DNA from: a virus
Lineage: Duplodnaviria; Heunggongvirae; Uroviricota; Caudoviricetes
Strand: one strand, 5' to 3'
IMG/VR virus record: IMGVR_UViG_3300015174_000009
DNA: 14,490 bases
In this document: positions 3,001-6,000 of the stretch, in pieces
Layout: the number at the start of each line of letters is the position of its first letter
Position numbering within the stretch: the first letter of the stretch is position 1
Program-made: the position numbers

Positions 3001-6000
3001 GACCGTTTCCGGCATGGCGGCATATTCATCACGCAATACCCCCAGCTGGCTGATTAACGCAGGAACGACTTTATCCGCCGTCAGTTTGCCGTCGTCCGCC
3101 ATCGCCTTAAGGTCTTTACGGGCCACGCCCATACCCGCAGCCAGTGCACGTACGATCCGGTCTCCGCTTTCATTGACCGAATTAAATTCCTCACCGCGTA
3201 ACACACCCTGTGCCAGCGCCTGGCTGAACTGGGTGATCACCGAGCCCGCCTCTGCCGTACTGGCACCGGAGATTTTCAGCCCCGTGGAAATGGCCTCCGT
3301 CACCTTCAGCACATCATCAGCACTGTAACCATATTCACGCATTGAGGCTGCCGAGCGGGCAAACAGGGCCGCATTATCTGAAAATGCCGTGCCCGTCCGC
3401 TGGCTGATATCCATCAGCACTTTCTGTGATGACGAAAATTCATCGGATGACTGCGACGCCTGTTTCAGTCGGGCATTCACGGAACTCCATTCATCGGCCA
3501 GAGAAATCAGGTGTCCGGTGGCAAAGGCACCTGCAAATGCCCCCGCCGTTCCGGCAGCTGAAGCGCGGATTTCCGTCAACTGGCTGTTCAGCTCAGCCAG
3601 GGCGCGTCGCTGCTCCCGGGCGACTGCGGCAGCCTGACGCCCGCCATTCTGCAGGGTCCGGTAATATTCACTGCCCATGCGGGAAGCCCGCTGGATCTCC
3701 GACTGGAATGACTGCGAATTTGCCGAAATTTTGATAATCAGTTCACGTAACGTCGCCATTCACCTTTCTCCGGGCGTAAAAAAACCGCCTCAGCGGTTCT
3801 CATCATTCATGACTGTGCTGCAAAGCTCAGCGCGTCTTCCAGCGCCGCAAACGGATCCACCTCCGGCTTATCCTCATCCTCGCCCCAGCAGAGCATGGCG
3901 TCCTTCAGTGCAACATTCATCCCCTGTGCCCCAAAAACCGCTTTCACGATCTGTGCATTACGGATATCCCCGCGCTCATCACCCAGCGGGGATACCCTGT
4001 CGAACTCCATCCACATCATCGCCTCGCTCACACTCAGGCTGTGCCGCAGTTCGGATAAGGTGCGCCCCAGACGGAGCGCAAGTCGCATCAGAAAGCGAAT
4101 TTCCGGGCGGGCTACTTTTTTCTGGCCGACTCTGCATCAGCGATCAGTTCCAGTGCCTGACGCAGCAACCGGGCATGTACCGGACCATAGACGGCCAGCA
4201 CCTGCTCACGGTCGTCCGGAGCGAACACCCGCTGCAGATCCGTATCACACAGGACATCGCAGAACAGCGTCACATCCGCTTCCAGGTTACGGCGGGTTTT
4301 CGCCACCACCGACAGGGTATCGTCATCCTCTCCATCACCATTGAGCACTTCCTGCCACAGATACCAGGCCTCTGCCGAAGGCTCCCGCAGCACCACGCTG
4401 ACATTACCCCATTCCGGCACCTTCACCGTTTTATGACGAAACCCTGACAGTCTGGCCAGCGCCAGCGTTTTCAGATCCTTTTTCATGATGACCCATCCCC
4501 TTATCCGGCGGCTGCGCTCACTGTCACGGTGCATTCAACAGACGTCACACTCTGTGCTTTCTCTGCCGAATCGGTCACCACGCAGGTATATTTCCCCGCA
4601 TCAGCGGACTGCGCACCTGGCTTACTGAAGGTGTCTGTCGTCTGCCCGTCAACCGGCTGACCATCCTTCTTCCAGGCGTATTTATACGGCGGCGTTCCCC
4701 CGTTGGCACTGACTGACATTGTCAGCAGCGCACCTGTATTCACGGTAAGTGTTTTATCCAGATTTTTCACAAACGCCAGCGGTACCACAAAGGACACCGG
4801 TTTGCCTTTCATACGCAGTGAAAACGTTGCTGCCACCACGCCGTTGGTACCGGATGACCAGGTGTGCTGACGCACTTCCGCCAGGAACTTAAAGCCCTTA
4901 CCGGACGGAAACAGCACCTTAAACGCATACAACGCGTCATTGTCATAGGCATCACGCAGGGCGTTCTGGGCCTGATTCAGATAAAAATTACCCGACATGG
5001 AAATCTCAGACGACGCCCCCAGACCGTTGATGTTCTCCTGCTCGGTGGAGCAGAGCGTGGTCACATCAATATCCTGTTTCTGACCGGCGGTGAACTGGAC
5101 TTCCTTGATGGTGCAATCCAGGCGCAGATATTCCGCCTTATCCATAGTTTCAGCAGTCGCCGGGGCAGATGAAATCATCACCTGCGTCAGCTGTGAGCGT
5201 TCATACAAAGCAGACATTCTGCCTCCTGATAATAAAAAACCCGCACGCGGCGGGGTATGGTTTTGTAGAAAAAAGAAAAAGTCACACCGTGACCTGAAAC
5301 TCCAGGGTTGCACGGTAACAGCGGTTTTCCGGAATATAGTCCTGCATTTCACTGACGGATCCCGGGGCCAGCAGCATTATGGCTTCACGGGCGTCCTGAC
5401 GTATCTGACGCGCCTGCGTCACAGTCCCGGCATAAACGTCTATCTGCACCGACACTGAGGACTCCGCCTGCCCGCCCATCACGTCCGCTGACACCGATGA
5501 AATCAGGCTGAAAACCACCCACGGAAGCGCCACCGACGGCCTGCCATCCAGCAGGGGGACCACATACGGGTACACCTGCCCGCCGGCAAGATGCGCCAGA
5601 TGAGGATACAAATCCGCCTCCGTCATCGTCTCAGTACCTCATCAATGGCCCGGTTCATCCGCGCAATCGCCACCTGAGCTGCCTGTTCACTGCGCACATC
5701 AAACGCCGGGCGCACAAACGGGTGCGGTGGCATATTCACGGTCCCCATTTCCACAAACCGCCAGTAGAAAGCATTGCGCGGGTTATCCGCCTTCATAGTG
5801 TTATCGCTGTTACCGGTGTCCGGATTAACACCCCGGATATGGACACCGGATTCCATCCCGCCATCGCGGGAGCGCCGGGAAAGGATCACCACATTGCGGC
5901 GCAGTTTTCCCCTGCGTACCGGTGCCCGTGACACCACTTCTTCTTTCAGCACATTCGCACCCGCACGGGTTGCCTCACGCAGCACCCGGTTATTTTCCGC

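Follow-up and report, generated by a model that had tools for sequence, protein, structure and literature searches.

The gap ahead of the major tail (tail tube) gene in a 14,490-nucleotide stretch of viral DNA (IMG/VR record IMGVR_UViG_3300015174_000009, Caudoviricetes; the whole stretch is called the window below) contains a GC stem-loop, a run of U residues and a Shine-Dalgarno (SD) sequence, read on the minus strand. This element is probably a genuine, conserved Rho-independent terminator, which would stop RNA polymerase (RNAP) lacking phage Q and be read through by Q-modified RNAP. Comparison of related loci indicates that its structure is under selection, on the basis of covariation and of its presence in 35 of 35 relatives, and its sequence and position identify it as the ortholog of a putative terminator annotated in phage HK97. 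All genes of the window lie on the minus strand and make up the structural (late) operon of a lambdoid Stx-type Escherichia coli prophage with an HK97-type tail module.

The pre-tail-tube element and its conservation

The element occupies all 64 nt that separate the major tail gene from the tail-terminator gene ahead of it (Table 1). An earlier interpretation, referred to here as the sequence-only reading, described the minus strand as running from a hairpin through a U-run, AGGAGG and CAGA to the AUG of the major tail gene, which matches the sequence exactly. The hairpin is present in both the minimum free energy and the centroid structures, at -8.5 kcal/mol and with 79% of the ensemble. Directly 5′ of AGGAGG lies an A/U-rich tract of 12 nt, UUUUUUAUUAUC, which is unpaired in the predicted folds.

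The relatives were collected as upstream regions of homologous tail-tube genes from phage records, from IMG/VR and from one genome per species; a second viral scan, made with the alignment of the proteins, gave mainly E. coli loci that were almost identical and hardly widened the diversity. A GC hairpin, an immediate T-run, a GGAG-type SD and a start codon are found in every one of the 35 loci, the tail-tube proteins of which share 46–100% identity. About 17 named genera are represented: Escherichia, Klebsiella, Raoultella, Enterobacter, Kosakonia, Leclercia, Phytobacter, Buttiauxella, Superficieibacter, Serratia, Pectobacterium, Brenneria, Symbiopectobacterium, Cronobacter, Yersinia and Providencia, together with one contig labelled Martelella. 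The stem occurs as CCCGC/GCGGG, CCGCC/GGCGG, CCGGC/GCCGG, CCACC/GGTGG, CCACT/AGTGG, GCCGCC/GGCGGC and GACCGC/GCGGTC. Loop sequences show no relationship to one another, with UNCG or GNRA tetraloops, as found in ordinary terminators, in many loci. In many relatives an A-rich 5′ flank pairs with the first U residues, which is also a trait of terminators.

In a structure-guided alignment, two-sided changes are seen in six of the seven pairs, and the number of compensatory cells is 56 as compared with 18.7 after shuffling (none of 500 shuffles reaches 56), with the reservation that the alignment was fitted to the structure model and is therefore biased towards the structure. The signal collapses in slid-register controls. 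The alignment also contains 47 G-U or U-G cells, which would be A-C mismatches on the other strand, and the structure is therefore read on the sense RNA.

The distance from the last G/C of the stem to the ATG is 22.6 ± 1.7 nt among the loci (range 19–28), with 22 nt in the window and 23 nt in HK97. Between the upstream stop codon and the hairpin there are 19–27 nt in most loci, with a full range of 3–90 nt. In one locus, a prophage of Enterobacter intestinihominis (L213, 6190-6985), an inserted KilA-N gene encoding 176 amino acids (6343-6873) separates the tail-terminator gene from the tail-tube gene. A copy of the hairpin stands on either side of the insert (6190-6207 and 6964-6977), and the outer flanks match uninterrupted relatives. 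A TATAAT hexamer lies ahead of the KilA-N gene, but the consensus scan called no promoter there.

The sequence upstream of the ATG is non-coding. In phage YYZ-2008 the RefSeq coding sequence of the tail-tube protein (L310 19294-20079, which is NC_011356 36293-37078; window region 5218-5352, minus strand) is made to start 23 codons ahead of the ATG of the MSALYE N-terminus, at a GTG overlapping the upstream stop. Single-nucleotide indels occur in the upstream spacer among near-identical prophages, and the extended reading is out of frame in the window, so that the RefSeq extension is an annotation artefact. This is of practical value for annotation, since with the start codon placed upstream of the hairpin, as in at least one reference phage, the element passes for coding sequence.

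In the window a second hairpin stands in tandem upstream of the element and overlaps the stop codon of the tail-terminator gene (5279-5295; -6.3 kcal/mol, z -2.6). A compensatory variant, GAUCAC/GUGAUC, changes both arms in one E. coli locus (L007), the hairpin is destroyed in another locus (L017), and it is absent from HK97 and other relatives. A further pairing was noticed at the start of the gene (5195-5232, minus strand), where the 3′ part of the SD with the spacer, GAGGCAGA, can pair with codons 2–4, UCUGCUUU, placing the AUG in the loop (-10 kcal/mol). A conserved hairpin that sequesters the SD and the AUG was rejected, as the relatives show nothing comparable (mean z 0.06).

Sister modules and genomic setting

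The sequence-only reading placed the same arrangement ahead of the fused protease/major capsid gene and of the tape-measure gene, and both the sequence and the covariance model hits bear this out (modules 1 and 2 in Table 1). Modules 1 and 2 have the same stem. Over the stretch that runs from the 3′ stem arm to the end of AGGAGGC, module 1 (11161-11187) matches the pre-tail-tube module (5218-5244) at 24 of 27 positions, and the difference between their stems is compensatory, with an A-U pair in one and a C-G pair in the other. This degree of identity exceeds the apparent functional need; one intergenic site of the genome may have been copied to the other, or gene conversion may have taken place between the two. 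A mobile cassette was considered and rejected: the exact pattern of the 3′ half in IMG/VR, among the matches listed, precedes only tail-tube and capsid-fusion genes.

A strict motif, defined as a stem of at least 5 bp with at least four GC pairs, a loop of 3–6 nt and then at least six T in 7 nt, is found at four sites (six registers) in the window, all on the minus (coding) strand, as compared with a mean of 0.13 registers in 300 dinucleotide shuffles. Three of these sites are the three modules (11198-11181, 5254-5240 and 3798-3783). The enrichment of the strict motif and the 35 relatives support the proposed module of a terminator-like hairpin, a U-run, an SD and a start codon. Rfam 15 gives no match at the gathering threshold anywhere in the window. 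The fourth strict site, GGCAUGG-UGGUUA-CCGUGCC-UUUUUGU (322-303, minus strand), lies within the coding region of the M-like minor tail gene and may be due to chance.

A covariance model built from the pre-tail-tube modules only gives 43.3 bits for the window element, 50.2 bits for HK97, 35.5 bits (E ~1e-7) for module 1 and 23.5 bits (E 5e-4) for module 2; as the model includes the U-run, the SD and the ATG, its hits indicate a shared architecture and not necessarily common descent. Applied to the relatives, the same model adds about 35 sites; the coding strand carries 77 of its 79 hits. Such sites precede the tape-measure gene in at least 19 loci, and some are placed before I-, M-, L- and K-like tail genes, before the adaptor gene, or before small open reading frames (ORFs) that follow the capsid gene.

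This distribution contradicts the proposal of the sequence-only reading that the modules mark the genes of the most abundant or largest virion proteins, since the relatives also have them before the I-, M-, L- and K-like and adaptor genes. In HK97-type heads the hairpin follows the capsid gene and no such module precedes it, and lambda makes the same abundant proteins without room for the modules. A terminator before a gene would lower, not raise, the transcription of that gene. The modules follow the few intergenic gaps of the operon and the borders of its functional modules, not protein abundance, and they are a trait of the HK97-type tail module, not of lambda.

The hairpin of module 2 begins 8 nt past the stop of the T (frameshift) frame (window 3783-3809, minus strand). 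Ribosomes shifted into T would cover this hairpin, while the majority, ending at the G stop, would not. Behind the capsid gene, at ~9200-9183 on the minus strand, lies an 8-bp GC hairpin, GGGAGGCG/CGCCUCCC, which has no U-run and is preceded by AAGGAGG. It is followed by a 73-amino-acid ORF (8956-9177, minus strand; whole interval 8956-9221) without a Pfam match. A U-poor hairpin likewise lies right behind the capsid gene in HK97-type relatives.

The window region is 98–99.6% identical to Stx1, Stx2 and non-Stx E. coli prophages (for example YYZ-2008, phage 2851 and Stx1_14744). Of 5,426 complete E. coli genomes, 1,245 match a 151-nt probe that spans the pre-tail-tube element; there are 2,902 matches in all, and a single genome can hold as many as 8. 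The window itself ends before the late promoter. In YYZ-2008 (98.7% identical) a gene annotated as ‘antitermination protein’ is located on the same strand ~17 kb upstream, and the stx1, lysis, terminase and head genes lie between it and the tail genes.

Table 1. Genes and intergenic features of the window, in the order of transcription
Feature	Position	Strand	Remarks
Small terminase gene	12881-13444	-	
Large terminase gene	11223-12884	-	
Module 1: AACCGC-UCCG-GCGGUU, U-run, AGGAGG, GUG of the protease-capsid fusion	11204-11159	-	Hairpin 11198-11181
Fused protease/major capsid gene	9222-11159	-	
Portal gene	6749-9010	-	
Adaptor gene	6426-6752	-	
Head closure gene	6066-6416	-	
gp10-like gene	5623-6069	-	
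Tail-terminator gene	5282-5626	-	PHROG/Pfam assignment; stop TGA 5284-5282
Upstream tandem hairpin AGGUCAC-GGU-GUGACUU with U-rich tail	5295-5279	-	Overlaps the tail-terminator stop codon
27-nt U/A-rich spacer, tail-terminator stop to hairpin	5281-5255	-	T-run length polymorphic
GC stem-loop CCCGC-CGCGU-GCGGG (5-bp stem, 5-nt loop)	5254-5240	-	Arms 5254-5250 and 5244-5240, loop 5249-5245
U6 tract, starting at the first base 3′ of the stem	5239-5234	-	T-run there in 35/35 relatives
A/U-rich spacer AUUAUC, U-run to SD	5233-5228	-	Hairpin-to-SD interval U/A-rich in all relatives
SD AGGAGG of the major tail gene	5227-5222	-	GGAG almost invariant in the alignment of relatives
CAGA, SD-to-start spacer	5221-5218	-	From the sequence
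ATG start of the major tail gene	5217-5215	-	N-terminus MSALYE common to HK97 gp12
Major tail (tail tube) gene	4501-5217	-	PHROG 158 at E 1.7e-116; 68% identical to HK97 gp12
G/T chaperone genes	Between major tail and tape-measure genes	-	
Module 2: AACCGC-UGAG-GCGGUU, U-run, GGAG, then the tape-measure ATG at 3759	3798-3764	-	Hairpin 3798-3783
Tape-measure gene	517-3759	-	ATG at 3759
M-like minor tail gene	183-524	-	

Proposed termination and read-through, and alternative explanations

A GC hairpin, an adjacent U-run and, in many relatives, an A-rich 5′ flank are conserved jointly in the family, which is the signature of an intrinsic terminator rather than of a mere stability hairpin or a U-rich enhancer. 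Tail genes are essential for lytic growth, and a terminator placed ahead of them must therefore be overridden; in lambdoid phages the override is performed by Q-modified polymerase from the PR′ promoter (PMC6606751, PMC7547250). Reporter experiments showed that a terminating ribosome represses an intrinsic terminator only when the stop codon is at a short distance, with termination maximal beyond ~30 bp (PMC4824070). The window hairpin, located 27 nt past the TGA at 5284-5282, thus falls within the range where the terminating ribosome no longer blocks the terminator.

According to the proposed mechanism, RNAP without phage Q would release its transcript in the U-run, ~12–17 nt ahead of the ribosome-binding site, and stray, read-through or moron-derived transcription in the lysogen would thus be kept from the tail genes. 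Q-modified RNAP coming from the late promoter would pass the hairpin. In the read-through mRNA the hairpin would sequester the GC-rich segment, leaving the U/A-rich tract and AGGAGG open as an independent ribosome entry site. Most upstream neck genes overlap or almost abut, and the pre-tail-tube gap is the only sizeable one between the neck genes and the tail tube. The tight spacing from hairpin to start codon is probably in the main a matter of genome compaction, the U-tract, the SD and the spacer being the minimum packing, and the U-tract of the terminator may double as an A/U-rich translation enhancer. In reporter tests, no E. coli initiation region was more efficient than AGGAGG with an A/U-rich tract upstream (PMC2176067), which makes such a secondary translational role of the U-tract plausible. 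In the Enterobacter prophage with the KilA-N insertion, a hairpin directly follows the inserted gene, and the bracketed insert is a natural example that fits an insulator against Q-less polymerase. If this explanation holds, temperate phages would silence a 20-kb structural operon in the lysogen by means of scattered terminators that only Q-modified polymerase ignores, and a compact genome would reuse the U-tail of a terminator as the leader of the next gene.

Several observations weigh against a terminator. The folding z-score of the hairpin is an unexceptional -1.42, and 18 of 200 shuffles of this GC-rich 35-mer fold equally well, so that thermodynamics alone is no proof and was left out as evidence. 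A loose terminator scan of the window is not enriched (15 found, 12.3 expected in shuffles), and the strict motif was used in its place. The window stem is among the weakest of the family, with 5 bp and -7.5 to -8.5 kcal/mol as opposed to 7–9 bp and -10 to -15.5 kcal/mol in most relatives, and termination may therefore be only partial. Literature searches returned no transcript 3′-end or reporter data for the pre-tail-tube site; the accessible part of the Term-seq paper on enterohaemorrhagic E. coli (PMC7547250) discusses only tR′. No sense-strand promoter-like site in need of insulation was found upstream in the window. Lambda is without such modules, its U-V gap being 7 nt (L309, lambda 8947-8955) and its T and H genes overlapping (10542-10549), and hairpins are therefore not essential for tail gene expression.

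The short and weak stem of the window would also suit a partial attenuator or a maker of 3′ ends, although this explanation is rather unlikely. Some RNAPs would stop at each hairpin even with Q, or 3′ exonucleases would trim back to it, producing a transcript staircase with more mRNA for head and neck than for tail tube and chaperones, and least for tape measure and tail tip, while the message of the upstream gene would gain a protective 3′ hairpin. Modules stand at the neck/tail-tube and chaperone/tape-measure borders in nearly all relatives, which fits the falling copy numbers of the tail gene products, and HK97-type heads have a hairpin right behind the capsid gene. However, module 1, placed between the large terminase and capsid genes, would cut capsid mRNA relative to terminase mRNA, which is the opposite of the need; lambda attains the same stoichiometry without hairpins; and a pure stability hairpin would not require an invariant U-run. 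It is also unlikely that the hairpin, U-run and AGGAGG form a selected dual-purpose cassette, as opposed to a terminator that adjoins a ribosome-binding site by accident. Such a cassette would impose a hard stop in the lysogen and so silence capsid, tail tube and tape measure, virion proteins that are abundant and could trigger defence, and its U-tract, after Q-dependent read-through and possibly with a processed 5′ hairpin, would serve as an enhancer of translation and stability, the 24/27 identity resulting from its copying between sites in the genome. A tail-tube leader, in which termination is incidental, is quite improbable. In that case the mRNA would be cut in the U/A-rich spacer (5255-5281) to yield a 5′-terminal protective stem-loop, and the U-tract would recruit ribosomal protein S1 as a standby site or an enhancer. 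The distance from hairpin to ATG is indeed fixed while that to the upstream stop varies widely, the hairpin stays with the downstream gene at two rearranged loci (L015 and L213), the A/U-rich tract with AGGAGG is an optimal initiation region (PMC2176067), and the sequence-only reading had associated the modules with highly expressed genes. On the other hand, the same module precedes genes of low-copy proteins (tape measure, I, M, L, K), and compaction accounts for the fixed spacing, which is the minimum for a U-tract, an SD and a spacer. No processing site is known, the initiation regions of the relatives are not unusually unstructured (mean z 0.06), and the combination of a hairpin, an immediate U-run and an A-rich 5′ flank is terminator-specific and needless for an enhancer.

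It is very improbable that the palindrome acts at the DNA level, either by binding a protein or by serving as a junction or linker at which recombination exchanges mosaic modules or inserts morons. The KilA-N insert has two hairpin copies with outer flanks like those of uninterrupted relatives, as if recombined within the hairpin, another locus (L015) diverges just 5′ of the hairpin, and 24 of 27 nt are the same in the modules ahead of the capsid and tail-tube genes. Against this, identity does not break at the gap among ~60 close relatives, G-U pairs and the one-sided T-run indicate an RNA structure of the sense strand, and the stems covary rather than hold one sequence, contrary to what a sequence-specific protein site or a homology patch would show. 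A mosaic breakpoint at the gap was accordingly rejected, as identity among close relatives shows no sharp change across it, and so was a sequence-specific protein operator, the loops and stems being too variable. RNase III sites need stems longer than 5–9 bp, and an RNase III site was rejected on this general ground, the stems being too short. A chance match or a decaying, functionless relic would agree with the weak folding z-score and the unenriched loose scan. The comparative sequence data effectively refute it and leave it hardly any probability: the element persists, with compensatory changes, in all 35 loci, even at 46% protein identity, and the strict motif is enriched ~30-fold or more, on the coding strand only.

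Comparison with known systems

The terminator tR′ of lambda and the terminators downstream of it, which are read through by Q-modified RNAP (PMC6606751, PMC7547250), consist like the window element of a GC stem-loop and a U-tract, and the window element similarly lies in an operon downstream of an antitermination gene. While tR′ is a regulated switch just past the late promoter, the window hairpin is located ~17 kb into the operon and any regulatory role of it is putative. The tail genes of lambda, unlike those of the window, are without such internal hairpins.

Morons are units of promoter, gene and terminator, and the terminator of one of them, gp15 of HK97 (PMC3594210), is the counterpart of module 2. 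The KilA-N gene of the Enterobacter prophage, inserted at the pre-tail-tube site and bracketed by hairpins, resembles a moron, and no other relative carries one there. The pre-tail-tube gap of the window contains no ORF and no sense-strand promoter-like site, and thus neither the extra gene nor the promoter of its own that characterize a moron; moreover, the hairpin is found in all relatives, with or without a moron.

The 12-nt U/A-rich tract, AGGAGG, short spacer and AUG of the window resemble A/U-rich enhancers combined with AGGAGG (PMC2176067) and S1 or standby sites (PMC5934652). The window differs from them in that its U-rich tract doubles as the tail of a terminator hairpin, and any translational effect of it is putative. 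Like attenuators and stabilizers, the element is a hairpin between cistrons, with the potential to adjust expression upstream of it relative to that downstream or to shield a processed end of an mRNA. The rplL-rpoB attenuator and the ompA-type 5′ stem-loop are examples of an operon-internal attenuator and of a hairpin stabilizer, respectively. Stabilizers of the ompA type need their hairpin at the very 5′ end.

The closest counterpart of the window element is in HK97, where the GenBank entry (NC_002167) annotates a ‘regulatory: terminator, putative’ at 6692-6719. This feature separates gp11 (tail terminator) from gp12 (major tail subunit), and its sequence is AACCCGCCAGATGGCGGGTTTTCTTTTT, then CCAGGAGACAGCTATG. 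The site is the same, between orthologous genes in the same order, and the window protein has 68% identity with gp12 along the full length. The element in HK97 likewise consists of a GC hairpin, AACCCGCC-AGAU-GGCGGGUU, a U-run and then CCAGGAGACAGCU-AUG. Its stem is longer, with 9 bp and -15.5 kcal/mol as opposed to 5 bp and -7.5 kcal/mol in the window, and the annotation in HK97 is itself a prediction. This annotation reportedly goes back to Juhala et al. (2000). Other putative terminators in the HK97 record precede the protease gene and gene I, and follow the capsid gene, the tail-tube gene and the gp15 moron, the last of these standing ahead of the tape measure. The one before the tape measure (8398-8422) is in the position orthologous to module 2. 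The window, unlike HK97, has the extra tandem hairpin over the upstream stop codon and a third module before its fused protease-capsid gene. The biology is thus not new: hairpins of this kind have been annotated in HK97 since 2000, the element occurs in about a quarter of complete E. coli genomes, and orthology as judged from sequence and gene order makes it an already known, ordinary late-operon feature of such phages.

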